A stretch of 64,000 bases of DNA from Escherichia phage MIZ6 (OR192075.1), one strand, 5' to 3'. Shown: positions 1 through 49,187, counted from the first letter of the stretch. Notes: generated by a model from the sequence alone, not told the origin. A program made the numbers and translations.

Positions 1-1827
<1,827 letters not shown>

Positions 1828-1858: not shown

Positions 1859-3862
1859 ATGACTCTATTATCACCGGGTTTCGAAACGAAAGAAACTACT
1901 CTCTCCACTACCATTGTGCAATCTGCGACTGGTCGCGCTGCACTGGTAGGTAAATTCCAATGGGGTCCAGCTTTCCAGATTATTCAAGTAACTAATGAAG
2001 TTGAATTAGTTAATAAATTTGGTCAGCCGGATAATAACACCGCAGACTATTTCATGAGCGGGGCTAACTTCCTCCAGTATGGCAATGACCTGCGTGTTGT
2101 TCGTGTATTGAATAAAGAAAAAGCGAAAAACGCAACTGCCCTAGCTGGTAACATCGAGTTTGAAATCACAAACGAAGGTTCAAACTATGAAGTAGGCGAT
2201 ACCATCAAGATTAAACATAACCGTCAAGATATTGAAACGGCTGGTAAAGTAACTAAAGTTGATGGTGATGGTAAAGTTAAGGGTGTATTTATCCCAACTG
2301 GTAAAATTATCGCTCACGCTAAAGCAATCGGTGTATATCCAGAACTTGATGGCGGTTGGACGGCAGAGTTCACTTCTTCGTCAGGTAACGGTAGTGCGGC
2401 GCTGTCAGTAACTAAAATTGTTACTGATTCCGGTCTTCTGTTAACGGATCTGGAAACTTCCCGCGCCAATATCACAAATCAGACTTTCTTGACTAAACTC
2501 CAGAAGTATGATATGCCAGCGGTAAGCGCGATCTATGCTGGTGAGATTGGCAACTCGCTGGAAGTTGAAATTCTGGCACGTAGCGCGTTCAGTGGCGCGG
2601 TAGCACCTGAATTAACTATATATCCGTTCGGCGGAACTCGTGCCGCAGCACGCAACCTGATTCCATATGCACCGCAGAATGATAATCAATATGCATTTAT
2701 TGTTCGTCGCGATGGTGTTGTGGTAGAATCCTATGTACTGTCTACTCTGAAAGGGGATAAAGACGTATACGGCAATTCTATCTACATGGACGACTTCTTT
2801 GCTCGTGGTTCTAGCCAGTACATCTATGCAACCGCTCAAGGGTGGGTAGATGGTTTCAGTGGTATTATCTCTCTTGCTGGTGGTGTTTCTGCTAACGAAG
2901 CAACGACTGCTGGTGTTGGTGCTGATCCGTTCATCGGTGCGATGATGCAAGGTTGGGATCTGTTTGCTGAACGAGAATCTATTCATGTAAACCTGTTGAT
3001 CGCTGGTGCATGTGCTGGCGAAGGCGATGCGTTCTCTACCGTACAGAAACATGCTGTTTCCATCGGTGATGAGCGTCAGGATTGCTTAGTAATGGTTTCT
3101 CCGCCGCGTAGCACTGTTGTTAATATTCCGGTGACTACCGCAATTGATAACCTGATTGCATGGCGCGAAGGTTCAGGAAACTATAATGAAAACAACATGA
3201 ACATTAATACCACTTACGCGGTTATTGATGGTAACTACAAATATCAGTATGACAAATACAACGACGTAAACCGTTGGGTTCCGTTGGCTGCTGATATTGC
3301 TGGTTTGTGCGCTCGCACTGATGCTGTATCCCAGCCGTGGATGAGTCCGGCAGGTTATAACCGTGGTCAGATCATGAACGTGGTTAAACTGGCAATTGAG
3401 CCTCGCAAGGCGCACCGCGATCGTCTGTACCAGGCCGCAATTAACCCGGTAATCGGTGCTGGTGGTGAAGGGTTTATCCTGATGGGTGATAAAACCGCTA
3501 CGACTGTTCCTAGCCCGTTTGACCGCATTAACGTTCGTCGTCTGTTTAACATGCTGAAAAAGAATATCGGCGATTCAAGCAAATACAAACTGTTTGAAAA
3601 CAACGATAACTTTACTCGCGCTTCCTTCCGTATGGAGGTTTCGCAATATCTCAGCACGATTCGCTCTCTGGGTGGCATTTATGACTTCCGAGTACAATGC
3701 GACACCACGAATAACACGCCGGATGTAATTGATCGTAATGAATTTGTTGCTAGTATGTTCATCAAACCAGCAAAATCGATCAACTATATCATGCTCAATT
3801 TCACTGCTGTTGCAACTGGTGCTGATTTTGACGAAATTATCGGTCCAGCTAACCAGGCATAA
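1859..3862 (+). CDS. 18: Tail sheath protein gp18
   Basis: 667-aa ORF; N-terminus MTLLSPGFETKE and long conserved blocks match T4 gp18. Confidence 0.95.
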   Translation: MTLLSPGFETKETTLSTTIVQSATGRAALVGKFQWGPAFQIIQVTNEVELVNKFGQPDNNTADYFMSGANFLQYGNDLRVVRVLNKEKAKNATALAGNIEFEITNEGSNYEVGDTIKIKHNRQDIETAGKVTKVDGDGKVKGVFIPTGKIIAHAKAIGVYPELDGGWTAEFTSSSGNGSAALSVTKIVTDSGLLLTDLETSRANITNQTFLTKLQKYDMPAVSAIYAGEIGNSLEVEILARSAFSGAVAPELTIYPFGGTRAAARNLIPYAPQNDNQYAFIVRRDGVVVESYVLSTLKGDKDVYGNSIYMDDFFARGSSQYIYATAQGWVDGFSGIISLAGGVSANEATTAGVGADPFIGAMMQGWDLFAERESIHVNLLIAGACAGEGDAFSTVQKHAVSIGDERQDCLVMVSPPRSTVVNIPVTTAIDNLIAWREGSGNYNENNMNINTTYAVIDGNYKYQYDKYNDVNRWVPLAADIAGLCARTDAVSQPWMSPAGYNRGQIMNVVKLAIEPRKAHRDRLYQAAINPVIGAGGEGFILMGDKTATTVPSPFDRINVRRLFNMLKKNIGDSSKYKLFENNDNFTRASFRMEVSQYLSTIRSLGGIYDFRVQCDTTNNTPDVIDRNEFVASMFIKPAKSINYIMLNFTAVATGADFDEIIGPANQA

Positions 3863-3896
3863 TCAGTAAATTAGCATAGATTAAAAGTTAAATCAA

Positions 3897-3915
3897 GCGG
3901 GGAGAAGTTCCCCGC
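3897..3915 (+). other. GC-rich hairpin GCGGGG-AGAAGTT-CCCCGC between genes 18 and 19 (copy 1 of 2 identical)
   Basis: Perfect 6-bp stem, 7-nt loop; no T-run after it; identical 19-mer recurs at 4443..4461. Confidence 0.6.
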
Positions 3916-3935
3916 TCTATTAAGGAATATCAATT

Positions 3936-4430
3936 ATGGCACTCGATTTGAATGATATTACACGCGGTTTCGAGTCTGGCGATTTTGCTCGTCCTAACCT
4001 GTTTGAAGTTGAGATCCCGTATCTGGGGCAAAACTTTAAGCTGATGTGTAAGGCTGCGACTGTCCCGGCTGCTACCGTAGAAAAAATTGCTGTAGGCTAT
4101 CAAAACCGTAAAATTAACATCGCTGGCGACCGTGTATACGACGACTGGACCATCACTGTATTCAACGATGACGCACACAAGATCCGTGATGCTATCGTTG
4201 CATGGAGCGATCAGACACATGGCACAGGTTCGGCGATCACTGGTGCAACTCCTGCACAATATAAGAAACAAGCTATTGTTCGTCAACTTAACCGTAACAC
4301 CGAATCAACTAGCGAAAAAACATTGTACGGTATTTTCCCGACCAACGTTGGTGAAGTAACCCTCGATTGGGAACAAAACAACGAAGTTGAAACGTTTGAA
4401 GTTACTTTTGCTATCGATTGGGTAGAATAA
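3936..4430 (+). CDS. 19: Tail tube protein gp19
   Basis: 164-aa ORF directly after sheath gene; size and position as T4 gp19. Confidence 0.85.
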   Translation: MALDLNDITRGFESGDFARPNLFEVEIPYLGQNFKLMCKAATVPAATVEKIAVGYQNRKINIAGDRVYDDWTITVFNDDAHKIRDAIVAWSDQTHGTGSAITGATPAQYKKQAIVRQLNRNTESTSEKTLYGIFPTNVGEVTLDWEQNNEVETFEVTFAIDWVE

Positions 4431-4442
4431 ATATATTATCAT

Positions 4443-4461
4443 GCGGGGAGAAGTTCCCCGC
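4443..4461 (+). other. GC-rich hairpin GCGGGG-AGAAGTT-CCCCGC between genes 19 and 20 (copy 2)
   Basis: Identical 19-mer to 3897..3915; lies 27 nt before gene 20 ATG. Confidence 0.6.
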
Positions 4462-4488
4462 CTAATTTCTCCCAATTCGAGGTGAATA

Positions 4489-6054
4489 ATGTTTAGTAGA
4501 TTAAAAATGCTTGCGCGTTGGGCTGATTTTGACAACGACAAATACGAAGAACAAATTAAAGATAAAGCAGAGTCTATCGCCGCACCTAAAAACAATGATG
4601 GTGCTACGGAAGTAGAAATTAATGATAATTTACCTGCTAGCGCGTGGAACTCTCTTACCCAGCAATTTTACAGCACCGACCAGAAAATCAGCACAACTAA
4701 GCAATTAGTTAACACATATCGCGGTTTGATGAATAACCATGAAGTCGAAAACGCTGTACAAAATATCGTTAACGATGCGATTGTATTTGAAGAAGGTCAT
4801 GAAGTTGTTTCATTAAATCTTGAGGCGACTGGCTTTAGTGAATCTGTAAAAGAGCGCATTCATGAAGAATTTAAAGATCTTTTAAACACTATCCAGTTTG
4901 ATAGGCGCGGTCAGGATATGTTCCGTCGCTGGTATGTCGATTCGCGTATTTTCTTCCATAAAATCATCGGCAAAAATCCAAAAGATGGTATCGTAGAATT
5001 ACGCCAGCTTGACCCACGTAATCTTGAATACGTTCGAGAGATCATTACAGAAGACACACCGGAAGGTAAAATTTATAAAGCAACGAAAGAATATTTCATT
5101 TACACTGTAGGCAATAGCTCTTATTGCGCAGGTGGTCAAGTATTCTCTCCTAATAGTCGCGTTAAAATCCCGCGTAGTGCTATTACATACGCTCACAGCG
5201 GCTTGATGGATTGCGATGATAAATATATCATTGGTTATTTGCATCGGGCTGTTAAGCCAGCAAACCAGCTTAAATTGTTGGAAGACGCAATGGTCGTTTA
5301 TCGTATCACGCGTGCACCGGAACGCCGAGTGTTCTTTATTGATACCGGAAACATGAACAACCGCAAGGCTGCACAGCACATGAACTCAGTGGCACAGTCT
5401 TTTAAAAACCGCGTTGTTTATGATGCATCGACTGGTAAACTTAAAAACCAGCAAGCAAATCTATCAATGACAGAGGACTACTGGTTACAGCGTCGAGATG
5501 GTAAAGCAATCACCGACGTTACTACTTTACCCGGTGCATCCGGTATGAGTGATATCGATGATATTCGCTACTTTAACCGTAAATTGTATGAAGCGTTGCG
5601 TGTACCATTGTCACGCAGTAATCTCTCCGATGCTAATATGGTGATCGGTGGTGACGGTTCAGAAATTACTCGCGATGAGTTGGAATTTTCGAAATTCATT
5701 AGAACTCTGCAATCACAGTTTTCGGAAGTATTGCGCGATCCTCTGAAATATAATCTGATTCTCAAAAATGTAATTACGGAAGACGATTGGGATCGTGAAA
5801 TAAATAATATCAAGGTGGTTTTCCATCGGGACTCTTATTATACAGAAGTTAAAGACGCGGAAATTTTAGAACGTCGAATCGGTCTAATCGAACGTATTAC
5901 ACCTTACATTGGTAAATATTTCTCTAACCAGACAGTGATGCGTGACATTCTGAAATATACCGATGACCAGATGGACACCGAGAAGAAACAGATCGAAGAA
6001 GAAGCGAACGATCCGCGCTTTAAACAAACTCCCGATGAAATAGAGGATTTTTAA
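4489..6054 (+). CDS. 20: Portal vertex protein gp20
   Basis: 521-aa ORF; blocks such as IGYLHRAVKPANQLKLLEDA and TEDYWLQRRDGKA match T4 gp20. Confidence 0.95.
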   Translation: MFSRLKMLARWADFDNDKYEEQIKDKAESIAAPKNNDGATEVEINDNLPASAWNSLTQQFYSTDQKISTTKQLVNTYRGLMNNHEVENAVQNIVNDAIVFEEGHEVVSLNLEATGFSESVKERIHEEFKDLLNTIQFDRRGQDMFRRWYVDSRIFFHKIIGKNPKDGIVELRQLDPRNLEYVREIITEDTPEGKIYKATKEYFIYTVGNSSYCAGGQVFSPNSRVKIPRSAITYAHSGLMDCDDKYIIGYLHRAVKPANQLKLLEDAMVVYRITRAPERRVFFIDTGNMNNRKAAQHMNSVAQSFKNRVVYDASTGKLKNQQANLSMTEDYWLQRRDGKAITDVTTLPGASGMSDIDDIRYFNRKLYEALRVPLSRSNLSDANMVIGGDGSEITRDELEFSKFIRTLQSQFSEVLRDPLKYNLILKNVITEDDWDREINNIKVVFHRDSYYTEVKDAEILERRIGLIERITPYIGKYFSNQTVMRDILKYTDDQMDTEKKQIEEEANDPRFKQTPDEIEDF

Positions 6055-9908: not shown

Positions 9909-9994
9909 TATAAGCCAATTCCTGAAAAACTCCGGTCGGGTGCAATACCCGACTTATCATAAACCTTATGACAGTGTAAAGTGTTAATTCCAAA

Positions 9995-10023
9995 GGGAAG
10001 ACTCGAAAGGGTCTTCCCTTTTT
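9995..10023 (+). terminator. Rho-independent terminator after gene 23
   Basis: Stem GGGAAGAC/GTCTTCCC, loop TCGAAAGG, followed by TTTTT. Confidence 0.75.
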
Positions 10024-10551: not shown

Positions 10552-10580
10552 GGAATCCTTCGGATTCCTTTTTCTTTTTG
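10552..10580 (+). terminator. Rho-independent terminator
   Basis: Stem GGAATCC/GGATTCC, loop TTC, then T-run. Confidence 0.6.
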
Positions 10581-16306: not shown

Positions 16307-17809
16307 ATGCAAGATATTAAAATTCACTTTCTGAACTACTCCCATGTTCAAATTGAATGTAGCGATTCAATTTTATTAGAAATGCGAGATTATTTTAGTT
16401 TTGAAGTCGAGGGAGCGCGGTTTCAAAAAAGATTTAAGTATGGTGGATGGGATGGGCGTATTCGTCTTTTAGATTACAACGGAAAGCTGCCAATCGGCCT
16501 AACTAAAACCGTGGGAATCTTCGCTAAAAATATGGGCTATAGCGTATGGGTAGATCCTCGCTTATTCGAAAAAGAACAAGTTACAGAAGAAGAAATTACA
16601 AAATGGTGTAATGACTTAGAATTATATTCCGGCGCTAACAGGATCACCCCGCATTGGTATCAATCAAAGGCCGTCTTTGAAGGTATTCATCATAAACGCC
16701 GTATGTTAGTTTTGCCTACGTCCGCTGGTAAATCTGCGATTGCTTGTATGTTGTCTCGTTGGTACTTAGAGAACTACGAAGGGAAAGTGTTGATCATCGT
16801 TCCTACCACGTCGCTAGTGCTGCAAATGCGTGATGACTTTGTTGATTATCGCCAGTTTCCTTATGAAGCAATTCATACTATCATGAGCGGTACTAGTAAA
16901 CACGTAGGTGATCGCCTGATCGTTGTTAGTACGTGGCAATCTGCATGTAAACAACCTCGTGAGTGGTTCCAACAATTCGGGATGGTTATTGTTGACGAAT
17001 GTCACAAGGCCACTGCTAAAAACCTGCTAAACATCGTTACTGATATGGAACATTGCCAGTTTAAGATCGGCATGACTGGTTCCCCTCGTGACGGGAAAGC
17101 TAACATGATGCAGTATGTCGGGCTTTTCGGTGATATTTCTAAGATCGTGAGTATTGACCGCCTGATGGAAGAAGGTCAAGTGACAAAACTGAAAATTAAC
17201 TGTCTTTTCCTTCGTTATACCGATGAGGAATGTAGCGCGGTTAAGGGGCGAGAATATGCGGAAGAGATCAAGTATATTACGTCTAATCCACGACGAAATA
17301 AGTTTGCTTGTAATTTGGCGCTAAAACTCGCTAAGAATGGCGAAAACGTATTCCTGATGTTCCGCAATACTAAGCACGGAAAACTTATGTATGACGCGTT
17401 ACAGAAGGTACACGACAAGGTTTATTATATTGACGGTGGAGTTAAGACAGAAGAACGTGATGAATTTAAGAAATTAGCGGAAGGGGAAACAGGGATCATT
17501 TGTGTTGCGTCTTATGGTGTGTTCTCTACTGGTGTTTCAATTAAGAATTTGCACCATGTTATTTTCGGTCATCCCGTGAAGGAATCAACTATCGTTCGTC
17601 AGAGTATCGGTCGTGCATTGCGTAAACATGGTTCGAAAGACATTGCAACGGTCTGGGATCTTATAGATCATTTGGCAGTGAAGACAAAGAGCAAGAATGC
17701 TAAAAAACAGTTTAGCCACCTTAATTATGCTCTTAAACATGCCCTTGAAAGAATAAAAATTTACAACACCGACCGATTCGAATATGTCACGAAAACCATC
17801 GAGATTTAA
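16307..17809 (+). CDS. uvsW: UvsW recombination/repair helicase
   Basis: Start moved to ATG 16307 (track start is GTG); PTSAGKS Walker A and DECH box; resembles T4 UvsW along whole length. Confidence 0.95.
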   Translation: MQDIKIHFLNYSHVQIECSDSILLEMRDYFSFEVEGARFQKRFKYGGWDGRIRLLDYNGKLPIGLTKTVGIFAKNMGYSVWVDPRLFEKEQVTEEEITKWCNDLELYSGANRITPHWYQSKAVFEGIHHKRRMLVLPTSAGKSAIACMLSRWYLENYEGKVLIIVPTTSLVLQMRDDFVDYRQFPYEAIHTIMSGTSKHVGDRLIVVSTWQSACKQPREWFQQFGMVIVDECHKATAKNLLNIVTDMEHCQFKIGMTGSPRDGKANMMQYVGLFGDISKIVSIDRLMEEGQVTKLKINCLFLRYTDEECSAVKGREYAEEIKYITSNPRRNKFACNLALKLAKNGENVFLMFRNTKHGKLMYDALQKVHDKVYYIDGGVKTEERDEFKKLAEGETGIICVASYGVFSTGVSIKNLHHVIFGHPVKESTIVRQSIGRALRKHGSKDIATVWDLIDHLAVKTKSKNAKKQFSHLNYALKHALERIKIYNTDRFEYVTKTIEI

Positions 17810-17815
17810 TAAATA

Positions 17816-17839
17816 GGGGCTTTAATGCCCCTTTATTCT
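17816..17839 (+). terminator. Terminator/attenuator hairpin after uvsW
   Basis: GGGGC-TTTAAT-GCCCC followed by TTTATTCT. Confidence 0.5.
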
Positions 17840-30028: not shown

Positions 30029-30058
30029 ATTATAGGGGGATCACCGATCCCCTGTCAA
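30029..30058 (-). promoter_or_regulatory. Early promoter cassette (TTGACA-18-TATAAT); spacer is GGGGATC-ACC-GATCCCC palindrome
   Basis: Consensus hexamers; spacer palindrome contains two GATC sites. Confidence 0.6.
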
Positions 30059-30065
30059 CAACTTT

Positions 30066-30584
30066 TTAGTTATTTTTTAATTGCTCATCTTGTAATAGGG
30101 CAATAACATGCTGTCGATGTTCTTCCGATTGAGGCACACCGAAAAAGTTTGTTTTGTAGAAATACTCTAATCGGTCTTCTCGTGTGCTCTCTTCCATCAT
30201 GATCGCGGGTAGTCCGAGATTTCGGAAACGTCGCTTTTCTGCTGGCGTAAAATCACTGTAATACAACATAGAATCATCATTACCAGCAATGCTAAACTCA
30301 TCATTCATAAAGGAGAATATTGCGTTTAAACGCTGTTTACCGTCCACGATTTCGATCTCATAGCGAGAGCCATCATCAATCTTAGCCATTGCGATAGCAC
30401 CAACCGGAAAATCATTAATCAGGTTTTCGATAAACATACGTTTGTTTTCGGTGTCCCATACCAAAGGACGCTGATAATCTGGGTTCATGTTGATATAGCC
30501 ATCTTCTAACCACGCCTCATAAACAGAGATGACAAAGTTTTTAGTATTGGTATAGTAACGGCGTTTAGGCGTTAAACGGTTCAT
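30066..30584 (-). CDS. DUF262 (ParB/Srx-like, GmrS N-domain-like) protein
   Basis: 172 aa from ATG 30584 (SD AGGAG upstream); motifs DYQRP and VDGKQR typical of DUF262. Confidence 0.55.
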   Translation of the reverse strand: MNRLTPKRRYYTNTKNFVISVYEAWLEDGYINMNPDYQRPLVWDTENKRMFIENLINDFPVGAIAMAKIDDGSRYEIEIVDGKQRLNAIFSFMNDEFSIAGNDDSMLYYSDFTPAEKRRFRNLGLPAIMMEESTREDRLEYFYKTNFFGVPQSEEHRQHVIALLQDEQLKNN

Positions 30585-30585
30585 G

Positions 30586-30918
30586 TTATAGTCTCCTGAA
30601 TGGATCATCACGTAAATCAATATCTTTTAAGAACTCATCCCATGAATGGCGGATATTGTTCTTAATTCTCCAGATAAGCGCAGGGATTGAACGCTCTCCC
30701 ATCTGGAAGTAGGGATCATATGATCCGTATGCCCAATATGCTACTACAATTCCACAATCAGCGCAATAGTATTCTATTTCACTTGCTGGCGACCAAATTC
30801 CATCAATATGATCGGTGATCCTGCTTTCGATGTTATGGCTATGGCAATCAGGGCAACGGATGCAATGACCTTGTTTATCGTAATTTGACGTTAGAGAATA
30901 CTTAAACAATCTCATCAT
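30586..30918 (-). CDS. Zn-ribbon protein, possible degenerate HNH-like His-Me finger
   Basis: 110 aa; CIRCPDCHSH ... DHID ... CADCG; stop abuts downstream ATG. Confidence 0.45.
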   Translation of the reverse strand: MMRLFKYSLTSNYDKQGHCIRCPDCHSHNIESRITDHIDGIWSPASEIEYYCADCGIVVAYWAYGSYDPYFQMGERSIPALIWRIKNNIRHSWDEFLKDIDLRDDPFRRL

Positions 30919-31631
30919 AGATCCTTATTGGCTTCAAATACTGCCTTTGCGAATCCTCGCGGGGTAAGTGACCTGATAGTCTTTGTTCTGGTTCCTTTCC
31001 CGCCTAGCTTAGAATGCTGTTTACTGTACCCTTTATTAATCTGCAACGGTTTCTTTTCTGGCATTATAAAGCCTTGTCCGGTCCATAAGCAAGTCTTTTT
31101 CGGGTACATATCACGGGCGGCAATATACTCAGGAAACGTAGGATGTTTATCATCTTCCGGCAAATAACCGCCATATTCCCACGGATGGAACATGTAATCA
31201 GGCTTACGCCACATACTAGAGATAACGCTTACAGGATTCTCTATCATGTAGGGAACTCCTATCCATTCACCCAAATAAGCGGTTATTTTAGCTGCCCGTA
31301 CATCATGAACTTGAATCAATGGTCCTTGTTCTCGTTTCTTTCGTTCAAAGTGCGCAGCGCCACTAACAGCTAAATTGGTGCACGGTGGGAATGCAAATAT
31401 AATATCCGGTTTCCCCCATTCAAGGTCCATTGCTCTTTCCAGCCAGTTCAAATCAATCCAGGTGTTTACATAGGTAATGTTTGGATGTTCAAATCTGGTA
31501 TTATACTTTTTGTATGTACCGTGGTCGGCGTCATCCGCATTAAAGCAGACTACCTTATGACCTGCTTTAGCCCATTCTAGCCCCATTATCCCCGATCCGT
31601 CAAAGTTGCAGAATATTAATTTTTGTTTCAT
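30915..31631 (-). CDS. Minimal C5-cytosine methyltransferase-fold protein
   Basis: 238 aa; FDGSG (motif I-like), FPPCT (motif IV PC-like), ENP (motif VI-like) at DNMT-like spacing; too short for a full TRD. Confidence 0.45.
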   Translation of the reverse strand: MKQKLIFCNFDGSGIMGLEWAKAGHKVVCFNADDADHGTYKKYNTRFEHPNITYVNTWIDLNWLERAMDLEWGKPDIIFAFPPCTNLAVSGAAHFERKKREQGPLIQVHDVRAAKITAYLGEWIGVPYMIENPVSVISSMWRKPDYMFHPWEYGGYLPEDDKHPTFPEYIAARDMYPKKTCLWTGQGFIMPEKKPLQINKGYSKQHSKLGGKGTRTKTIRSLTPRGFAKAVFEANKDL

Positions 31632-31873
31632 ATACGACCCTTTAACCCAGCACAGATTTTAGTCGGTTCTTTACCGTGCCACATTAAGTAAAGTCCGTTA
31701 ATGCGACCTTGTTTTGTGTGTGATTCTTTTCTGATCTTCTTATAGTGTCGTGCTTCCTCAACTGATTGTTTAGAATACCAATCATAAAGGAAGAGGCACA
31801 AAGGCCAACCATTAGCGGCCTTAATGCAGTTATTAAGAAATTCCTTATTGCGTTTAATTAATTTTCTTTTCAC
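31628..31873 (-). CDS. Hypothetical basic protein (81 aa)
   Basis: GTG start overlapping upstream stop (GTGA); GGGGG SD-like upstream. Confidence 0.4.
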   Translation of the reverse strand: MKRKLIKRNKEFLNNCIKAANGWPLCLFLYDWYSKQSVEEARHYKKIRKESHTKQGRINGLYLMWHGKEPTKICAGLKGRI

Positions 31874-32121
31874 GCTGCCCCCATTGGTTTGATAGTAACA
31901 GAATCTAAAAGACCTTTGTTAGCCAGTTCGCGGCAAGTTTTCAGATCCGCAACTTCCCAGCCAGCCGCAATCAGGTTATCAATGAGGCTGTTAGCAACTT
32001 CTTCGCTCATGAAAGAGCACTGTTTGCCTATGGTGTAGCGTACACGCTGTAATTTCAGTTTACGGAAGCCTTTAACGTTCAGGTCTTTAGCGATTTTCTT
32101 TGCGGTTTCGATGTTAGCCAT
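31870..32121 (-). CDS. Hypothetical protein (83 aa), first gene of operon
   Basis: ATG preceded by GGAGAATCAAAC leader. Confidence 0.5.
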   Translation of the reverse strand: MANIETAKKIAKDLNVKGFRKLKLQRVRYTIGKQCSFMSEEVANSLIDNLIAAGWEVADLKTCRELANKGLLDSVTIKPMGAA

Positions 32122-32161
32122 TGTTTGATTCTCCTAAGTGGTATCTCGTCTTGATGGTTGT

Positions 32162-32191
32162 ATTGTAGGGGATCTCCCGATCCCCTGTCAA
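32162..32191 (-). promoter_or_regulatory. Early promoter cassette (TTGACA-18-TACAAT), palindromic GATC spacer
   Basis: Spacer GGGGATC-GGGA-GATCCCC; heads the five-gene operon 30066..32121. Confidence 0.55.
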
Positions 32192-32205
32192 CACTTTTTA
32201 TAAAA

Positions 32206-32373
32206 TTATTTGTTAATTTCTGGTGCGTTGCTCGGATAGTAACCTTCTTTAACACCAAGATATTTTGCAACCATTCCTACAATCTTCTGTGCTACTACAA
32301 TGTCAAATTTCAGATAATCTTCGCCGTGGGTTTCAATGATATATGCTTCACATGCTGCTTTAGTCTCGAACAT
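32206..32373 (-). CDS. Hypothetical small protein (55 aa), paralog of 36524..36691
   Basis: 3' 72 nt identical to 36524..36595; SD GGAGAATCAAA before ATG. Confidence 0.5.
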   Translation of the reverse strand: MFETKAACEAYIIETHGEDYLKFDIVVAQKIVGMVAKYLGVKEGYYPSNAPEINK

Positions 32374-32407
32374 TTTGATTCTCCTATTTCGTTTCGTTAT
32401 GTGTGTA

Positions 32408-32436
32408 TTATAGGGGATCTCCCGATCCCCGTCAAC
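32408..32436 (-). promoter_or_regulatory. Early promoter cassette (TTGACG-17-TATAAT), palindromic GATC spacer
   Basis: Spacer GGGATCGGGAGATCCCC. Confidence 0.55.
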
Positions 32437-32448
32437 AACTTTTTAAAA

Positions 32449-32922
32449 TTATTTGCACCAAATTCGAATGATTTCGTCTCGTTCAAATTTTTGCCAGATT
32501 ACTCGGTCGCCCGCTGCCATAATACTGACAAATCCAGTTATATTTCCGGTGTACTTGCTTTTAGTTTCTGCATCATATTCAAAGAATGGAGCTTTAAGAT
32601 CGCTAAACTCATCTTTTCCCACAAACTTCATAACATGACGGTGTGCGTAATATTCGCTTCTTAGTGTTGTTGTGATAGTTCCGTCATCATTTGATTTCAG
32701 ATGCAATTCGGCATCTTCATAAAGACTTGCATCTCGTTGTTTACTTTCGATACCATCATTATATGTTGATTTGGTTGCACTCCAACATTGATATGTCTTA
32801 TCTACATTTTCGATCTTTTCCTGTGTCATGTCAAAAAGCGGCGCAACCTTTTTCTTAGCCGCGTGCGCAACGTTGGTCATAGACAGTGCCGCAACAACCG
32901 CAATAGCAATAATTTTCTTCAT
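32449..32922 (-). CDS. Predicted secreted/periplasmic protein
   Basis: 157 aa; N-terminal signal peptide MKKIIAIAVVAALSMTNVAHA followed by AKKK. Confidence 0.55.
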   Translation of the reverse strand: MKKIIAIAVVAALSMTNVAHAAKKKVAPLFDMTQEKIENVDKTYQCWSATKSTYNDGIESKQRDASLYEDAELHLKSNDDGTITTTLRSEYYAHRHVMKFVGKDEFSDLKAPFFEYDAETKSKYTGNITGFVSIMAAGDRVIWQKFERDEIIRIWCK

Positions 32923-32983
32923 AATATCATCTCCTTTGGTTTATATGGCGGGAGTATCTTAGCAATACTCCCTTAATACTATA

Positions 32984-33265
32984 TTATTCGTGATTAGTTT
33001 CGATGTTGTGCATTTTGCACCAGTTCAGCCAATCGCCCAGATCTTGATAGTTGATGCTTTTATCTGCTGCCATCGTTTTTGTCTTGATACCCATATGTGC
33101 GTTATGAGTAAGCATTTTTACAGTGAACTCAATTTTATCGCCTTTAGCTTTAACATCAACCAGTTTGGTCCACTGGCTACCAGCGCCGCGAATGTTCATG
33201 CCAACGATGTTTCCGATGTATGCTTCTTTGTTTTTCAGGATTTCGGTTGCTTTGATGAATTTCAT
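32984..33265 (-). CDS. Hypothetical early protein (93 aa)
   Basis: Conserved leader and promoter cassette upstream. Confidence 0.5.
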   Translation of the reverse strand: MKFIKATEILKNKEAYIGNIVGMNIRGAGSQWTKLVDVKAKGDKIEFTVKMLTHNAHMGIKTKTMAADKSINYQDLGDWLNWCKMHNIETNHE

Positions 33266-33298
33266 TTTTGATTCTCCAGTTCGTTTCGGTATGGGTGT

Positions 33299-33327
33299 AT
33301 TATGCTATGTTCTTACTTTGGTGTCAA
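33299..33327 (-). promoter_or_regulatory. Early promoter cassette (TTGACA-17-CATAAT)
   Basis: Minus-strand hexamers; A-tract upstream of -35. Confidence 0.55.
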
Positions 33328-33335
33328 CAACTTTT

Positions 33336-33605
33336 TTAGATATTTTCAGAAATAAATTTTAAAACTTGACGTAAATGTTTCTCATCTTTGATAGTCGCCG
33401 GAAGTTCTTCTTTTACTTCCTGTGCAAGATAGATATTTCCGTTCCAAGTGAAAGATCCGTCTTCGTTTACGCGATAGCTGAACATCCACTCGCAATCATT
33501 TTCGATTTCATATACACACAGAAGGGTGTAATCGTTAAAGCTATTGATTTCAAGGTCGAAGCCGTGACGTTTTGCAAAGTTGGTAGTGGTTTTAGTCAGT
33601 GCCAT
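33336..33605 (-). CDS. Hypothetical early protein (89 aa)
   Basis: Conserved leader GGAGAATCAAACA before ATG. Confidence 0.5.
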   Translation of the reverse strand: MALTKTTTNFAKRHGFDLEINSFNDYTLLCVYEIENDCEWMFSYRVNEDGSFTWNGNIYLAQEVKEELPATIKDEKHLRQVLKFISENI

Positions 33606-33645
33606 TGTTTGATTCTCCTAAGTGGTATCTCGTTTCGATGGGTGT

Positions 33646-33674
33646 ATTATGCTATACACAGGATCTGGTGTCAA
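33646..33674 (-). promoter_or_regulatory. Early promoter cassette (TTGACA-17-CATAAT)
   Basis: Minus-strand hexamers; partial inverted repeat over -10. Confidence 0.55.
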
Positions 33675-33696
33675 CAACTTTTTTAAAAAATAGGCA

Positions 33697-33722
33697 ATAA
33701 AAAAGCCGACACTATGGTCGGC
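33697..33722 (-). terminator. Rho-independent terminator
   Basis: GCCGAC-ACTATG-GTCGGC with A-run on plus strand. Confidence 0.65.
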
Positions 33723-33727
33723 ACATT

Positions 33728-33982
33728 TTAAAAATTCTTGCTATATATGCAAGCCTCATAATCTAGAGGATGACCGCCAATCCTACCAGGCTTAATATTC
33801 CAACCGCATCGATATTTGCTGACCATGCTAACCGTTTCGGTTCTTAGAGCATTTCTTTGCAAATCATACCCCCTAAATTCTTGTCTATAAGGACAGTCCG
33901 CTTTGCAAGTTGGCGGTTCTACGTCATTTAGCGGGTCAGAAGCAGTTGGCTTTATTATCAATTCTTTGTTTGCAATAATCAT
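33728..33982 (-). CDS. Hypothetical protein (start uncertain)
   Basis: Track ORF 33728..34045 overlaps upstream gene; internal ATG at 33982 chosen; Cys-containing. Confidence 0.3.
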   Translation of the reverse strand: MIIANKELIIKPTASDPLNDVEPPTCKADCPYRQEFRGYDLQRNALRTETVSMVSKYRCGWNIKPGRIGGHPLDYEACIYSKNF

Positions 33983-34115
33983 AAGCACATCCCATTGAAG
34001 GCAATTTAACATCTTCGCAATAAGTGTTGAATCCGTCAAATACAATCACTTCGTATTTGACTCCATCGGCGATAGCTTTTACTTTATACCATCCATGCTT
34101 GTATAAAATCTTCAT
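33936..34115 (-). CDS. Hypothetical small protein (59 aa)
   Basis: ATG at 34115 preceded by GAGGGAAATAAAG; track ORF extends with TTG start. Confidence 0.45.
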   Translation of the reverse strand: MKILYKHGWYKVKAIADGVKYEVIVFDGFNTYCEDVKLPSMGCAYDYCKQRIDNKANCF

Positions 34116-34148
34116 CTTTATTTCCCTCAATCTCGTTTCGATTGGTGT

Positions 34149-34177
34149 ATTATGCTATAGGCGTGAACTGGTGTCAA
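34149..34177 (-). promoter_or_regulatory. Early promoter cassette (TTGACA-17-CATAAT)
   Basis: Minus-strand hexamers. Confidence 0.55.
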
Positions 34178-34202
34178 TGCCTTTTTTTAAAATTTTATGC
34201 AA

Positions 34203-34227
34203 TAAAAAAGCCGACACTAAGGTCGGC
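34203..34227 (-). terminator. Rho-independent terminator
   Basis: GCCGAC-ACTAAG-GTCGGC with A-run on plus strand. Confidence 0.65.
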
Positions 34228-34235
34228 TAATAAAA

Positions 34236-34544
34236 TCATTTAGACAAATAATCATTCTGTGCAATCCGGTCGGCGTATGCTGGTGTTATGTCAATCGCCA
34301 GCACTTTAACGCGTGCTTTCTTGCGACCTGGGTTTTCTCGTAACCAGTGCTCATGACCGTGAACATTTTTATACTTTGATGCTGTTTCGAAAGTACGGAT
34401 CGGACCTGGGTAATCAGCGTAAAGGATCTCTAGATCTTCGGTGATGTAAAAATATACATCGTAATTGCTGTTCTCTAGCTTAAGCAGAGACTTTCGGAAC
34501 ATTGGGAGATTTTCGCGGGTAAATTCAAAGATATTATCTTTCAT
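34236..34544 (-). CDS. HxHW-motif small protein family, member 1
   Basis: 102 aa; YDVYFYITEDLEI ... HGHEHWL ... VKVLAIDI. Confidence 0.5.
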   Translation of the reverse strand: MKDNIFEFTRENLPMFRKSLLKLENSNYDVYFYITEDLEILYADYPGPIRTFETASKYKNVHGHEHWLRENPGRKKARVKVLAIDITPAYADRIAQNDYLSK

Positions 34545-34567
34545 AGTATTATCCTCAATAGTTGGAT

Positions 34568-34588
34568 GAAAAGGGGCGTTAACGCCCC
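34568..34588 (-). terminator. Terminator-like hairpin
   Basis: GGGGCG-TTAA-CGCCCC with flanking A/T runs. Confidence 0.5.
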
Positions 34589-34594
34589 CATATA

Positions 34595-34882
34595 TTAAAA
34601 CAGTCCTTCCTGTACACCGTAGTAGAGTTCGTCGCTGATAATTTCATTAATGCGACGGTGTGCATATTCCTGATTTGCGAAGTTGTCAGCAAGTTCTACT
34701 TTAGTTTCGCCGTCATGAGTCCATTTAGTGATAACTTTACCATCTGCAAATTTGAAGTTGAACTCTTTAGCTACTGCATCGCGTACCAGACGTGCAAACT
34801 TATTGTTGCGGATTGCATTGTCGGTTTCGTGTGCAGCGTGAGCAAATTTGTTAACTTTCAGAGTGATAGTGATGTATGCCAT
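34595..34882 (-). CDS. Hypothetical early protein (95 aa)
   Basis: Leader GGAGAATCAAATT before ATG. Confidence 0.5.
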   Translation of the reverse strand: MAYITITLKVNKFAHAAHETDNAIRNNKFARLVRDAVAKEFNFKFADGKVITKWTHDGETKVELADNFANQEYAHRRINEIISDELYYGVQEGLF

Positions 34883-34928
34883 AATTTGATTCTCCTAGTT
34901 AGAAAGTGTATCTCGTTTCGATGGGTGT

Positions 34929-34957
34929 ATTATGCTATACACCCGATCCGTTGTCAA
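34929..34957 (-). promoter_or_regulatory. Early promoter cassette (TTGACA-17-CATAAT) with inverted repeat GGGTGTAT/ATACACCC
   Basis: Perfect 8-bp inverted repeat 34923..34944 overlapping -10. Confidence 0.55.
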
Positions 34958-34963
34958 CACTTT

Positions 34964-35242
34964 TTATAAAATAATTTTTTGATATTTTTCTATGATGTTT
35001 GTGTAGGTCACATCAACCGCTAGCACCGTTGCTTCGAATCCACCGTTTAGCCAATGGCTATGGTCATGATCGTGAAAGAAACCAAGACCAGTACGAAGAC
35101 CTTCTTTATATTCGGCGCGTACATTTAGATCATCATCGATAAACAGATAAAACCATGAATTTTTACTAGGATTGATGATACAACCTTTCAGATTAGGGAG
35201 AATATCACGACTAAGAATAAACTTATCACCTACTTTTAGCAT
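34964..35242 (-). CDS. HxHW-motif family, member 2
   Basis: From ATG 35242 (SD GTGAGGAAA); FYLFIDDDLNV ... HDHDHSHWL ... VLAVDV. Confidence 0.5.
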   Translation of the reverse strand: MLKVGDKFILSRDILPNLKGCIINPSKNSWFYLFIDDDLNVRAEYKEGLRTGLGFFHDHDHSHWLNGGFEATVLAVDVTYTNIIEKYQKIIL

Positions 35243-35256
35243 AATATTTTCCTCAC

Positions 35257-35565
35257 TTATAAAGTTTGACCGTTGTTTTTCGCGTAATGCTGAATGCGTG
35301 CTTGATCTGCTTCCGCTGGTGATAGATTCCATGCGATCACTACAACTTCTGACGCATCATGATCATTATCACTTACCCAATGATTATGATTCATACAATT
35401 GTTTGCTATCGCGTGAGAAAATGATCTCATTACCGGAGACGTATAATCATAGTAACGGATTTTCAGATTTTCATCAACGTACAAGTAGATCGTATACGGC
35501 TTATATTCAGTAACCAGTAACAGACAGTTACGCAATTCTGGGAAAATCTTTTTAGTTAATTTCAT
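35257..35565 (-). CDS. HxHW-motif family, member 3
   Basis: From ATG 35565 (SD CGAGGATTA); IYLYVDENLKI ... NHNHW ... VVVIAW. Confidence 0.45.
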   Translation of the reverse strand: MKLTKKIFPELRNCLLLVTEYKPYTIYLYVDENLKIRYYDYTSPVMRSFSHAIANNCMNHNHWVSDNDHDASEVVVIAWNLSPAEADQARIQHYAKNNGQTL

Positions 35566-35566
35566 T

Positions 35567-35785
35567 TTATAATCCTCGGTCGCGGCTATAGTACACGGTA
35601 CGCCATACAATTTCATGTTTCGTGTCGCTCCAGCACACGATCTCATTTACTCTTAAATCTTTGTTATCAACAAAAGATGAACATTGTGACGCTTCTTTCA
35701 TCATTTTATCTGCTGTTTTCTCATCAAATACAGCACAGATTTCTTTATACACTCGATAATCTTTGAATTGACTCTGGATACCCAT
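35567..35785 (-). CDS. Hypothetical small protein, paralog of 35745..36002
   Basis: Shared FK.Y..Y ... KMM.EAS.C.SF motif with neighbour; 41-nt out-of-frame overlap. Confidence 0.4.
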   Translation of the reverse strand: MGIQSQFKDYRVYKEICAVFDEKTADKMMKEASQCSSFVDNKDLRVNEIVCWSDTKHEIVWRTVYYSRDRGL

Positions 35786-36002
35786 AATTAACACCATTCC
35801 AACCAATTGTTTTTGAGAAAACGTTTATCCACTGTTGAGTGTAGCATGTTTCTTTCCATGATACAATACGAGTAGAATAATGGTTTTTGTTTCCAGAAAA
35901 GGACGGGCATTTTGATGCATCTTCCATCATCTTTTCGGCGAACTCTGGTGCGTATACTCGCAGGATCTGTTGATATGCTTTGTATTCTTTAAATTTGCTC
36001 AT
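35745..36002 (-). CDS. Hypothetical small protein, paralog of 35567..35785
   Basis: MSKFKEYKAY ... EKMMEDASKCPSF. Confidence 0.4.
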   Translation of the reverse strand: MSKFKEYKAYQQILRVYAPEFAEKMMEDASKCPSFSGNKNHYSTRIVSWKETCYTQQWINVFSKTIGWNGVNYGYPESIQRLSSV

Positions 36003-36267
36003 AATCATTCACTACCTTATCAGCTTCTTTTGTTGTTTTTACATCAACTGCGATAACTCGTAAAGGTTCGTCATGGTTCCACCAGTGGTCATGAATATCA
36101 GCTTGTGATTTATCACCAAAGGAATCACGAATATCATTTTTACATTTATAGCTAATGTGACCTTCATAGTCAACATAAAGGTAATTATCGAAAATCGGCG
36201 TTTTTAAGATCATACCGAAAAATCTTTCTTTGTGTGTCTTATCCAGCGTTGCAGTAATTCGCATCAT
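35989..36267 (-). CDS. HxHW-motif family, member 4
   Basis: NYLYVDYEGHI ... IHDHWW ... VIAVDV; SD AGAGGAATA. Confidence 0.5.
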   Translation of the reverse strand: MMRITATLDKTHKERFFGMILKTPIFDNYLYVDYEGHISYKCKNDIRDSFGDKSQADIHDHWWNHDEPLRVIAVDVKTTKEADKVVNDYEQI

Positions 36268-36279
36268 AATATATTCCTC

Positions 36280-36459
36280 TTAGAAAGGGATGGTCATTTC
36301 TTGAGCTTGTACGTTCTCGTTAGGATTAAACTTCATCCAGCCGATATTGTCTACCAGCATATGCACATTTTTATCATATCCTACGTGGGTAGTCAATACT
36401 GTATGTGCTTTACCTTCAATGATGAGTTCCATGTACTTCTGAACTTCGATAGCTTTCAT
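36280..36459 (-). CDS. Hypothetical small protein (59 aa)
   Basis: ATG preceded by GGAGAATCAAA; promoter cassette upstream. Confidence 0.45.
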   Translation of the reverse strand: MKAIEVQKYMELIIEGKAHTVLTTHVGYDKNVHMLVDNIGWMKFNPNENVQAQEMTIPF

Positions 36460-36491
36460 TTTGATTCTCCGTTTGTTGTCTTGATGGGAGT

Positions 36492-36520
36492 ATCTTACTA
36501 CTCCCTTTAATCATTGTCAA
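36492..36520 (-). promoter_or_regulatory. Early promoter cassette (TTGACA-17-TAAGAT) with inverted repeat GGGAGTA/TACTCCC
   Basis: Minus-strand hexamers; heads the run 36459 down to 34964. Confidence 0.5.
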
Positions 36521-36523
36521 CTA

Positions 36524-36691
36524 TTATTTGTTAATTTCTGGTGCGTTGCTCGGATAGTAACCTTCTTTAACACCAAGATATTTTGCAACCATTCCGGTGA
36601 TCTTCTGTGCTACTACGATATCGAATTTCAGGTAGTCTTCACCGTGGTTTGCTACAATGTATGCTTCGCATTCTGCTTTAGTCTGGAACAT
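36524..36691 (-). CDS. Hypothetical small protein (55 aa), paralog of 32206..32373
   Basis: 3' 72 nt identical to 32206..32277. Confidence 0.5.
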   Translation of the reverse strand: MFQTKAECEAYIVANHGEDYLKFDIVVAQKITGMVAKYLGVKEGYYPSNAPEINK

Positions 36692-36723
36692 TTTTGATTC
36701 TCCTATCTCGTTGGTATGTGTGC

Positions 36724-36752
36724 ATTATAGGGGATCACCGATCCCCTGTCAA
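36724..36752 (-). promoter_or_regulatory. Early promoter cassette (TTGACA-17-TATAAT), palindromic GATC spacer
   Basis: Spacer GGGGATCACCGATCCCC. Confidence 0.6.
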
Positions 36753-36757
36753 CAACT

Positions 36758-37051
36758 TTATAATGCTTTATATGCGTATTTCATAAATTTGTCTGCCACT
36801 TCATTGGCATGTTCAGATTCTACGCCTGATTCGAGAACAATAGCTAGGTCGGTTTCGTCATTCCCGCCGTACCAATGATTTGATGTTCGATTTTTTTCAA
36901 TTGGAAATTGGTCACTTTTATCTGTGCGACAAAATACATCTAAATGCTCGTCGATGTAAAAGATCCAATCTTCATAAAGAATAACGGTATTAGCCAGATT
37001 TTTATTGCCTTCAACGAAAGGTTCGGCTACAAACAAATTAGTATGTTCCAT
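36758..37051 (-). CDS. HxHW-motif family, member 5 (divergent)
   Basis: From ATG 37051; ILYEDWIFYIDEHLDV ... SNHWYGG ... LAIVLESG. Confidence 0.4.
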   Translation of the reverse strand: MEHTNLFVAEPFVEGNKNLANTVILYEDWIFYIDEHLDVFCRTDKSDQFPIEKNRTSNHWYGGNDETDLAIVLESGVESEHANEVADKFMKYAYKAL

Positions 37052-37067
37052 AGTATTTTCCTCAAAA

Positions 37068-37259
37068 TTATACAGCTTCGTAAACTTCCCAATGTCCAAC
37101 ACCAGCACGCTTAACGAAAAGGTTTTCTTTTATGTTATTCATAAACGTCTGGATGGATTTAATGCGGTTTGAAGGTTTCCATTCTTCGTTGGTATTGCGT
37201 CGATACATCATAACATTACCAGTTCGCTTATATTCAGCAACCATTTTAAGACCACACAT
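37068..37259 (-). CDS. Hypothetical small protein (63 aa)
   Basis: SD TTGAGGATAA before ATG. Confidence 0.45.
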   Translation of the reverse strand: MCGLKMVAEYKRTGNVMMYRRNTNEEWKPSNRIKSIQTFMNNIKENLFVKRAGVGHWEVYEAV

Positions 37260-37315
37260 AATATTATCCTCAATTTGTGGGAGAGTATTACCCTCCCGAT
37301 TATTGTTATACTACA

Positions 37316-37618
37316 TTACGCAAAATGGCGTGTCAATGCTTCTTTTGCTGTTCCGCTAAGATTCTCGATCTCTCCTGGCATAACATCAACCGCAAGAACT
37401 TCTACAACATCCTCTGATCCTAACCAGTGAGTATGACCTTTGTAGAACTTGATATCCCATTTATCGCTATCGCTAGCCCACCACACATCACCGTCGATAA
37501 AGTTGATGTAAAGCACACTACGCCACATTGAATTAATTACTTTCAATACTGCGCCTTTCATCTCTTCCACGGTGTGGTCTTCCATTTTGAAGACCTCACC
37601 TACCTGAACTTTTGCCAT
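37316..37618 (-). CDS. HxHW-motif family, member 6
   Basis: LYINFIDGDVW ... GHTHWLG ... VLAVDV; SD AGAGGTGA. Confidence 0.5.
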   Translation of the reverse strand: MAKVQVGEVFKMEDHTVEEMKGAVLKVINSMWRSVLYINFIDGDVWWASDSDKWDIKFYKGHTHWLGSEDVVEVLAVDVMPGEIENLSGTAKEALTRHFA

Positions 37619-37635
37619 TTAGTCACCTCTCTTTA

Positions 37636-37815
37636 TTACATAACAATCACGCCAGCCGTTGAAAGTTGATGTTTCAACTGAGCATTTTCTGCTACCGTCA
37701 AATCAATGATTTCTTGTGACGCTGCAATCATATAGCCATTGGTGATATTGTTTTGCATCAGTTCAATGGTTTCTTCGTTGTAGCGGATTTTAGCGATGAT
37801 TTCGTTGAAGTTCAT
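37636..37815 (-). CDS. Hypothetical small protein (59 aa)
   Basis: ATG 37815 preceded by GGAGAATCAATT; track ORF extends with TTG start. Confidence 0.45.
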   Translation of the reverse strand: MNFNEIIAKIRYNEETIELMQNNITNGYMIAASQEIIDLTVAENAQLKHQLSTAGVIVM

Positions 37816-37849
37816 AATTGATTCTCCTAGTTCGTTTCGGTATGTGTGT

Positions 37850-37878
37850 AGTATAGGGGATCGGTGATCCCCTGTCAA
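37850..37878 (-). promoter_or_regulatory. Early promoter cassette (TTGACA-17-TATACT), palindromic GATC spacer
   Basis: Spacer GGGGATCACCGATCCCC on minus strand. Confidence 0.55.
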
Positions 37879-37886
37879 CAACTTTT

Positions 37887-38198
37887 TTAAAGTTTTTCCA
37901 TGATAACGGTCATAATTACATCTTCTGCGCGAGCGGTCAGATTATCAGCGTCAGCATGTGGGCGGCTGGTTGTTACAGAGATAACACCGTTGCGCACTGG
38001 TTTGATGTTGATATCAAGATGATCCGCGAAACGTTCGCCAGTTACAGAATGAATTTTGGTGTTAAATTCTTTTGCCAGTGCCTTGCGAACTTCACGAATC
38101 AGGGTAGCGTTTTTCAGTTGGTTCTCCGCGCTCATGGTCTTCTGGGTGTTCATGGTTCCGTCGAAGTCAATCATTGGCAGCGTTACGATGTATTTCAT
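37887..38198 (-). CDS. Hypothetical early protein (103 aa)
   Basis: ATG 38198 preceded by GGAGAATCAAAA. Confidence 0.5.
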   Translation of the reverse strand: MKYIVTLPMIDFDGTMNTQKTMSAENQLKNATLIREVRKALAKEFNTKIHSVTGERFADHLDINIKPVRNGVISVTTSRPHADADNLTARAEDVIMTVIMEKL

Positions 38199-49158: not shown

Positions 49159-49187
49159 ATTATAGCGGGGATTTCTCCCCGCGTCAA
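49159..49187 (-). promoter_or_regulatory. Early promoter cassette (TTGACG-17-TATAAT), spacer palindrome CGGGGA-TTTC-TCCCCG
   Basis: Sits 9 nt below nrdA stop. Confidence 0.5.

Follow-up and report, generated by a model that had tools for sequence, protein, structure and literature searches.

Hairpins on either side of the tail tube gene of a Krischvirus phage and their counterparts in other T4-like phages

The malE-malF REP elements are intercistronic hairpins of bacterial operons that act as 3' stabilisers, and C(UUCG)G hairpins were reportedly described by Tuerk et al. in 1988. In phage T4, the weak mobE terminator, which has a short U-tract, stops approximately 30% of transcripts and has been proposed to balance NrdA and NrdB (PMC2988022). 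Among the PeSL stem-loops, PeSL211/210 (AGGGGATCACGTATCCCCT) consists of a 7-bp stem and a 5-nt loop that is not followed by a T-run, and in a plasmid reporter it cut lacZ expression about as much as rrnB T1 did (Arbiol et al. 2010, PMC2839356). For phage RB49, TransTerm predicted a terminator named '19-->20' on the + strand at 89423-89441, with a 7-bp stem and a confidence of 100, as given in the supplement of Nolan et al. 2006.

We analyzed two copies of a hairpin that lie on either side of gene 19, which encodes the tail tube protein, in Escherichia phage MIZ6 (OR192075.1). The whole stretch of DNA analyzed, 64,000 nucleotides in length, is called the window. The region is 100% identical to OR167178 (Escherichia phage MIZ2) with unchanged coordinates, and gene names were taken from that record. 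With RB49, Phi1, GEC-3S and further phages of the genus Krischvirus it shares approximately 99% identity.

The repeat and its setting

The hairpin sequence GCGGGGAGAAGTTCCCCGC has only two matches in the window when up to three mismatches are allowed, both of them exact and on the + strand (Table 1). There were no matches in 100 dinucleotide-preserving shuffles, and none is expected by chance. Copy 1 is found in the 73-nt spacer between genes 18 and 19, starting 34 nt after the gene 18 stop codon, and copy 2 in the 58-nt spacer between genes 19 and 20, starting 12 nt after the gene 19 stop codon. A repeat search extended the direct repeat from 19 to 39 nt with 82% identity, so that each unit also takes in a promoter-like box and a spacer. 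The earlier note, made from the sequence alone, had described two identical 19-nt GC hairpins around the tail tube gene, and both the exact matches and the placement of gene 19 were confirmed. The repeat pair is real and non-random, yet it is an ordinary feature of a well-known kind that has been annotated before.

Table 1. Positions in the window of the genes, hairpins, promoter-like boxes and related elements
Feature	Position	Strand	Source
Late promoter TATAAATA ahead of gene 18	1820..1827	+	same as the predicted RB49 late promoter at 86777
Gene 18, tail sheath	1859-3862	+	ORF list, OR167178 annotation
Extended repeat unit, copy 1: degenerate promoter-like box ATTAAAAG, spacer and hairpin	3877..3915	+	repeat search
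Hairpin copy 1, 18/19 spacer: stem GCGGGGA/TCCCCGC of 7 bp, loop GAAGT; 8 bp over 3896-3916	3897..3915	+	exact match, folding
Gene 19 Shine-Dalgarno AAGGA, unpaired, beginning 6 nt past copy 1	3922..3926	+	sequence, folding
Gene 19, tail tube protein, between both hairpins	3936..4430	+	ORF list, OR167178 annotation
Extended repeat unit, copy 2: AATAAATA box, 9-nt spacer and hairpin	4423..4461	+	repeat search
Candidate gene 20 promoter AATAAATA, one mismatch from the T4 late promoter TATAAATA; overlaps the stop codon of gene 19	4426..4433	+	motif search
Hairpin copy 2, 19/20 spacer: the same 19 nt as in copy 1	4443..4461	+	exact match; same as the RB49 '19-->20' terminator
AATTTCTCCC, potential alternative-helix partner of GGGAGAAGTT (copy 2 5' arm and loop)	4464..4473	+	inverted repeat
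Gene 20 Shine-Dalgarno GAGGTG	4479..4484	+	sequence
Gene 20, portal	4489-6054	+	ORF list, OR167178 annotation
PeSL stem-loop GCGGGGAGAAATCCCCGC, closest sibling, between TTGAC (-35) and TATAAT (-10) of an early promoter	49165..49182	-	hairpin scan

Each copy is predicted to fold into a 7-bp stem with a 5-nt loop (-12.9 kcal/mol), and copy 1 gains an additional A-U pair for a total of 8 bp (-14.5 kcal/mol). The stems are those of a terminator, being GC-rich (six GC pairs in 7-8 bp), within the range of 5-12 bp with a loop of 3-8 nt, downstream of a stop codon and on the sense strand. The U-tract of an intrinsic terminator is lacking. Tail scores of the d'Aubenton-Carafa type are 1.1-1.9 after the two stems, whereas three canonical terminators of the window (9992-10021, 10552-10568 and 26003-28) score 3.95-5.17. 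The remark that neither hairpin is followed by a T-run was essentially correct, although copy 2 just passes a lenient test that counts five T in eight bases. Both downstream genes have a Shine-Dalgarno sequence of their own that the hairpins leave free, and nothing here points to translational coupling. A permissive Rfam covariance-model scan of positions 3700-4700 returned only chance-level matches (E-values 0.61 and 8.8), far under the gathering scores.

Variation among genera and within Krischvirus

The 18/19 and 19/20 spacers were compared across 17 phages in 15 genera, drawn from GenBank phage records. The panel includes Krischvirus, Tequatrovirus (T4), Slopekvirus, Pseudotevenvirus, Biquartavirus, Dhakavirus, Jiaodavirus, Kanagawavirus, Gaprivervirus, Gelderlandvirus, Mosigvirus, a KVP40-like Vibrio phage, Lazarusvirus, Ceceduovirus and a cyanophage. 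A scan of IMG/VR with gp19 had given only seven loci. All spacers of the panel contain a hairpin of -10 to -18 kcal/mol with the exception of two, the 19/20 spacer of Syn19 and the 18/19 spacer of Lazarusvirus, in which another ORF adjoins gene 19. When the two spacers of 14 genera were compared with composition-matched shuffles, 27 of the 28 folded better, with z-scores of -1.8 to -5.6.

The 19/20 hairpin is AUGGGGA-GAAA-UCCCCAU (AUGGGGAGAAAUCCCCAU) in T4, GGGGA-GAAA-UCCCC (GGGGAGAAAUCCCC) in Mosigvirus, GGGGUA-GCAA-UACCCC in Slopekvirus and Pseudotevenvirus, and GGGGUA-GAAA-UACCCC in Ceceduovirus. The pairs outside and inside the G4/C4 core vary by genus and complementarity is kept. The stems were judged by direct inspection; when 13 hairpins of various genera were aligned with MAFFT, they did not fall into structural register. 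Both hairpins of the window are the Krischvirus versions of stem-loops that are found on either side of gene 19 in nearly all T4-like phages.

In a manual count with one phage per genus, UUCG or GNRA loops occur on the + strand in 16 of 28 hairpins, while the reverse complement of such a loop occurs in none (0/28). Because UUCG and GNRA loops stabilise RNA, this asymmetry between strands points to selection on the sense-strand late transcript rather than on an antisense RNA or on the DNA. The loops in the window are GAAGU pentaloops and fall outside the UUCG/GNRA tetraloop class, to which the GAAA of the copy-1 allele in G2248 belongs. At copy 1 the loop need not keep one identity on the sense strand, given the inverted loop of JSE (see below).

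Within Krischvirus, an 80-nt query over the 18/19 spacer matched 58 records. The copy-1 spacer is exact in only four of these (MIZ2, MIZ3, Whisky and JK32), and most of the others are two bases off. Across seven aligned Krischvirus sequences, the copy-1 stem GCGGGGA/TCCCCGC is invariant and its flanks nearly so. Over these and the other loci read, all with that stem, the loop takes five forms: GAAGT (MIZ2, pEJ01 and the metagenome locus L004), GAAAA (RB49, Makalu_001, Brandy, phiS and the IMG/VR locus L003), TAAAA (UPWr_E1), GAAA (G2248) and TTTTC (JSE). Copy 1 of JSE, at approximately 737-755 of its locus and corresponding to window positions 3897-3915, reads GCGGGGATTTTCTCCCCGC, which is the RB49 allele exactly reverse-complemented; its loop is inverted and its flanks are unaltered. 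The 80 nt around copy 2 are identical in 45 of 57 records, and the remaining 12 have one base different. Four of the five such variants read carry a C to T change just past the stem (window position 4462), and the fifth, pEJ01, a T to C change just before it. The copy-2 hairpin itself is unchanged in every Krischvirus locus read. Since Krischvirus genomes are 95-99% identical at this locus, conservation within the genus is of little weight.

Only a minority allele has two exactly identical copies, and this state is derived and not conserved. A copy-1 loop that was ancestrally GAAAA would have been overwritten by the copy-2 loop GAAGT in one sublineage, and the change of AA to GT is a two-base change that produces exactly the copy-2 sequence. 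Judged by the distribution of alleles, this looks like a copy-correction event, although the conversion is not an observed one, and the identity, present in a few strains, is recent by this reading and probably neutral. The earlier note had taken the exact duplication as a sign of a paired function for gene 19. That view did not survive the comparison, in which the copy-1 spacer was exact in 4/58 records, RB49 and other typical genomes had the GAAAA loop, and the loop of JSE was inverted. Exact repeats flanking a phage gene can reflect recent copy-correction rather than a designed pair.

A further rearrangement is found in UPWr_E1 (PP418985), where approximately 757-1110 of the locus contains a 273-bp tandem duplication that takes in the 3' end of gene 18, the hairpin spacer and ~37 nt at the beginning of gene 19. 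A short additional 'tail sheath protein' ORF results, and the duplication could be either genuine or an assembly artefact.

The 5' arm and loop of copy 2 (GGGAGAAGUU, 4446-4455) can also pair with AAUUUCUCCC (4464-4473). The resulting alternative helix has a predicted energy of -13.2 kcal/mol compared with -13.7 kcal/mol for the hairpin, and copy 1 has no comparable pairing partner. This alternative helix might be the reason why the copy-2 loop is invariant. As a remote possibility, copy 2 could be a two-state RNA switch, alternating between the hairpin and the AAUUUCUCCC helix, that sets translation of the portal gene. Separately, several genera have a short UCCCA-like motif ~3-8 nt 5' of the gene 20 Shine-Dalgarno sequence (window positions 4470-4484; 19/20 spacers of T4 and of the loci L017, L020 and L021). 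Weak pairing of this motif with the Shine-Dalgarno sequence could damp portal translation.

Promoters, read-through and the proposed role

A late promoter box, [T/A]ATAAATA, is present in most spacers of the panel, and its order relative to the hairpin varies. The usual arrangement in 18/19 spacers is a hairpin whose 3' arm is directly adjoined by the promoter (T4, Slopekvirus, Biquartavirus, Mosigvirus). For 19/20 spacers there are three arrangements, in which the promoter may come after the hairpin (T4, Mosigvirus, Jiaodavirus, Gelderlandvirus, Ceceduovirus), abut it (Slopekvirus, Pseudotevenvirus, Biquartavirus) or lie ~9 nt upstream of the core hairpin (Dhakavirus, Kanagawavirus, Gaprivervirus). 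Elsewhere in the window, at 17808-17832 on the + strand, a second AATAAATA box abuts the GGGG/CCCC hairpin AGGGGCTTTAATGCCCCT, with a Shine-Dalgarno sequence and a start codon next in line. This layout of late promoter and stem-loop is that of the Slopekvirus and Pseudotevenvirus 19/20 spacers.

The promoter TATAAATA at 1820 is the sole consensus late promoter upstream of gene 19 in the window. Between it and 4426, the lone late-promoter-like site with at most one mismatch is TACAAATA at 3236, within gene 18. Gene 19 therefore has no late promoter of its own, and its transcription must pass through copy 1. The candidate gene 20 promoter AATAAATA is likewise upstream of a hairpin, with the box 9 nt before copy 2 and a predicted start at ~4439, 4 nt ahead of it. 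Thus transcripts of genes 20 to 21 pass copy 2 whether they originate at 1820 or at ~4439. Such obligatory read-through at both hairpins argues that neither is an efficient terminator in late infection.

We consider the chances about even (a probability of roughly 0.5) that the hairpins, as sense-strand stem-loops of the late mRNA, serve as leaky terminators or 3' stability barriers, and that the identity of the two copies is non-functional. Structure, positional conservation, sense-strand orientation, the weak U-tract, the promoter layout and the distribution of alleles were computed here, and from these we infer the effects on termination and mRNA stability. Both hairpins would be transcribed within a late message that starts at TATAAATA ahead of gene 18. 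Given a GC-rich stem of 7-8 bp and a poor U-tract, most polymerases would probably not be stopped, and the hairpins would act as leaky terminators or would block 3'-to-5' exonucleases. Copy 2 would mark the end of an abundant sheath-tube message ahead of the low-copy portal gene. Copy 1 would shield the gene 18 segment while still allowing read-through into the promoterless gene 19. Literature searches on transcript maps, both for the late genes of T4 and for RB49-like phages, gave nothing usable.

The portal protein gp20 is dodecameric, with 12 copies, and the T4 virion contains 138 copies each of gp18 and gp19. The resulting proportions of 138 gp18 to 138 gp19 to 12 gp20 are consistent with a step-down after gene 19. 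The earlier note had suggested an element for RNA processing, stability or translational coupling. The weak U-tracts, the read-through and the sense-strand loops of other genera support its core, most plausibly a feature of the late (+ strand) message that acts at the RNA level and not a classical strong terminator, whereas translational coupling is not indicated and RNase III is unlikely. The finding has little significance beyond annotation quality. Modules of a hairpin and a late promoter are found beside gene 19 across T4-like genera, and the sites would potentially be a simple natural example of how a phage sets sheath, tube and portal at 138:138:12 from one late transcription unit.

Both hairpins were known before this analysis, being annotated as putative terminators in the public record. 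An alternative that follows from these annotations is that they are efficient rho-independent terminators that delimit separate transcripts of genes 18, 19 and 20. The RB49 terminator at 89423-89441, to which TransTerm gives its confidence of 100, coincides exactly with copy 2, and MK327932 (G2248) marks both hairpins as + strand putative terminators (91604-91621 and 92149-92167, with values of -14.2 and -13.7). The public records conflict, however, over strand and over which hairpins are annotated. The RB49 record itself has no terminator feature at these hairpins, and MN894885 (Ec_Makalu_001) marks copy 1 alone, at 89293-89313, as a - strand terminator. Copy 2 does pass the lenient T-count test. 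Moreover, PeSL211/210 is a similar stem-loop without a T-run, and its block of lacZ, approximately like that of rrnB T1, means that the tail score may underestimate the effect of such hairpins. We nevertheless regard efficient termination as unlikely. The tail scores of 1.1-1.9 are far from the 4-5 of true terminators in the same genome. Gene 19 is needed at the level of gene 18, yet there is no late promoter past copy 1, and an efficient terminator at copy 2 would silence the essential genes 20 to 21, whose sole candidate promoter is upstream of it.

That same candidate promoter raises the question of whether copy 2 is chiefly a stabilising hairpin at the 5' end of a gene 20 transcript, which would start from AATAAATA 4 nt upstream. 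The box is 9 nt ahead of the hairpin, Dhakavirus, Kanagawavirus and Gaprivervirus have a similar distance (~9 nt) between box and core hairpin in their 19/20 spacers, and an A at -13 is common among RB49 late promoters (Nolan 2006). However, the RB49 late promoters given by Nolan 2006 do not include the AATAAATA site, and the other genera do not share the arrangement. The hairpin precedes the promoter in T4, Mosigvirus, Jiaodavirus, Gelderlandvirus and Ceceduovirus, and in Slopekvirus and Pseudotevenvirus the promoter abuts the stem, which would place the transcript start inside it. At copy 1 the box is merely degenerate. We consider a chiefly 5'-terminal role improbable and retain the leaky terminator or 3' stability barrier as the preferred reading.

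PeSL relatives, recombination and likeness to known systems

The window contains many perfect GC-rich hairpins, as a scan of its full length revealed. The early (- strand) hairpins are the PeSL cassettes of Arbiol et al. 2010, in which a stem-loop lies between TTGAC and TATAAT. Elements on the - strand at 30036-38267 and 49165-49182 match those described in that study. The stem of GCGGGGAGAAATCCCCGC at 49165-49182 is identical to that of the gene 19 hairpins, and its loop is GAAA. Like the PeSLs, the gene 19 hairpins consist of a GGGG...CCCC stem-loop in an intergenic spacer that is followed by a Shine-Dalgarno sequence and a start codon. However, they have no strong sigma-70-like promoter. 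Copy 1 is without boxes, copy 2 has a 9/12 match (TTGCTA-18-TATATT), and sigma-70-like matches occur at chance frequency (26 found, 26.1 expected). They are also on the late strand among the core genes 18, 19 and 20 rather than at an early-strand site before ORFans in hyperplastic regions. The gene 19 hairpins are relatives of the PeSL stem-loop and not PeSLs.

An ORF of ~200 aa is inserted in the 18/19 spacer of Krischvirus phiS (PP449093, 816-1415), between GGGGGAGGTCAACTCCCCC and hairpin copy 1, both GGGG/CCCC hairpins. A homologue is found at the equivalent site of an unrelated T4-like locus, L006 (606-1232; 38% identity, E 2e-39). The two share PHROG 5104, with weak HNH and endonuclease VII matches, and against Pfam the phiS protein has weak zinc-ribbon matches only. 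The inserted ORF resembles a free-standing homing endonuclease with the sheath/tube junction as its target.

The kinship with PeSLs invites a reading at the level of DNA, in which the hairpins are recombination modules of the PeSL family, linkers through which cassettes are exchanged, and folding of the RNA is incidental. The stem shared with the true PeSL GCGGGGAGAAATCCCCGC is consistent with this, and there are traces of exchange at the locus itself, where one allele of the copy-1 loop is a templated conversion of two bases and another an exact inversion, and where the HNH-like gene of phiS adjoins copy 1 between two such hairpins. In addition, one recombination event has been mapped inside the loop of a stem-loop (Arbiol et al. 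2010, PMC2839356). The traces are more simply explained, however, as by-products of short repeats in a highly recombinogenic phage. There is no good sigma-70 promoter beside either copy, the best being the 9/12 match ahead of copy 2. Recombination between repeats with an essential gene between them, in a conserved virion core, would be lethal, and the sense-strand UUCG/GNRA bias in other genera favors selection at the RNA level. We consider a DNA-level function improbable.

Slighter still is the chance that the GGGG...CCCC stem-loops on both strands of Krischvirus form one concertedly evolving family, recognized by a phage structure-specific protein that drives exchange between copies. Were this so, it would account for the loop conversion, the loop inversion and the hairpin-flanked HNH cassette, and the direct repeats would make the tail tube gene an exchangeable cassette.

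It is very improbable that copy 1 is a terminator of antisense (- strand) transcription, as the Ec_Makalu_001 record has it. The tail on the - strand is somewhat richer in T, with a score of 2.56, and a sigma-70-like - strand match at 4286-4258 is directed toward copy 1, but promoter-like matches are at chance frequency (see above), the long ORFs of the first 10 kb are all on the + strand, and loop orientation in other genera favors the sense strand.

Least to be expected is that the hairpins are cut by a particular ribonuclease, be it RegB at GGAG or RNase III. RNase III is unlikely to act here, since it needs a stem longer than 7 bp. A GGAG does occur at the stem/loop junction, but RegB requires the single-stranded 11-nt GGAGRAYARAA, 16 structured GGAG sites of T4 are resistant to it (PMC1702504), and it is without effect on late mRNA. 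By the criteria of the same work, the hairpin was rejected as a RegB target, as its GGAG is held in the stem and the downstream AAGUUCC is off consensus (PMC1702504).

As sense-strand stem-loops of the late message, the gene 19 hairpins can be set beside several known elements. Like the malE-malF REP elements, they are hairpins without a U-tract that come after a high-copy gene and before a lower-copy one; there is no relation in sequence, and the stabilising role is putative here. The internal terminator of T4 mobE, with its efficiency of ~30% (PMC2988022), resembles the putatively leaky hairpins in its GC-rich stem and short or poor U-tract inside a transcription unit whose downstream genes are expressed. 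The PeSL stem-loops of RB49 and phi1 (PMC2839356) come from the same genus and share the GGGG...CCCC design and traces of recombination, with GCGGGGAGAAATCCCCGC in the window matching the stem exactly. They differ in having a strong sigma-70 early promoter and in their place on the early strand before ORFans in hyperplastic regions, whereas the gene 19 hairpins are on the late strand in a conserved virion module without such a promoter. The intercistronic hairpins of T4-type late operons, for example AUGGGGAGAAAUCCCCAU between T4 genes 19 and 20, have the same position after genes 18 and 19, the same strand and weak U-tracts, and they are similar in their GGGG/CCCC core, size and energy. In contrast to these, the hairpins of the window have GAAGU pentaloops instead of UUCG or GNRA tetraloops, and the late promoter found after the 18/19 hairpin in most other genera has been lost in Krischvirus.
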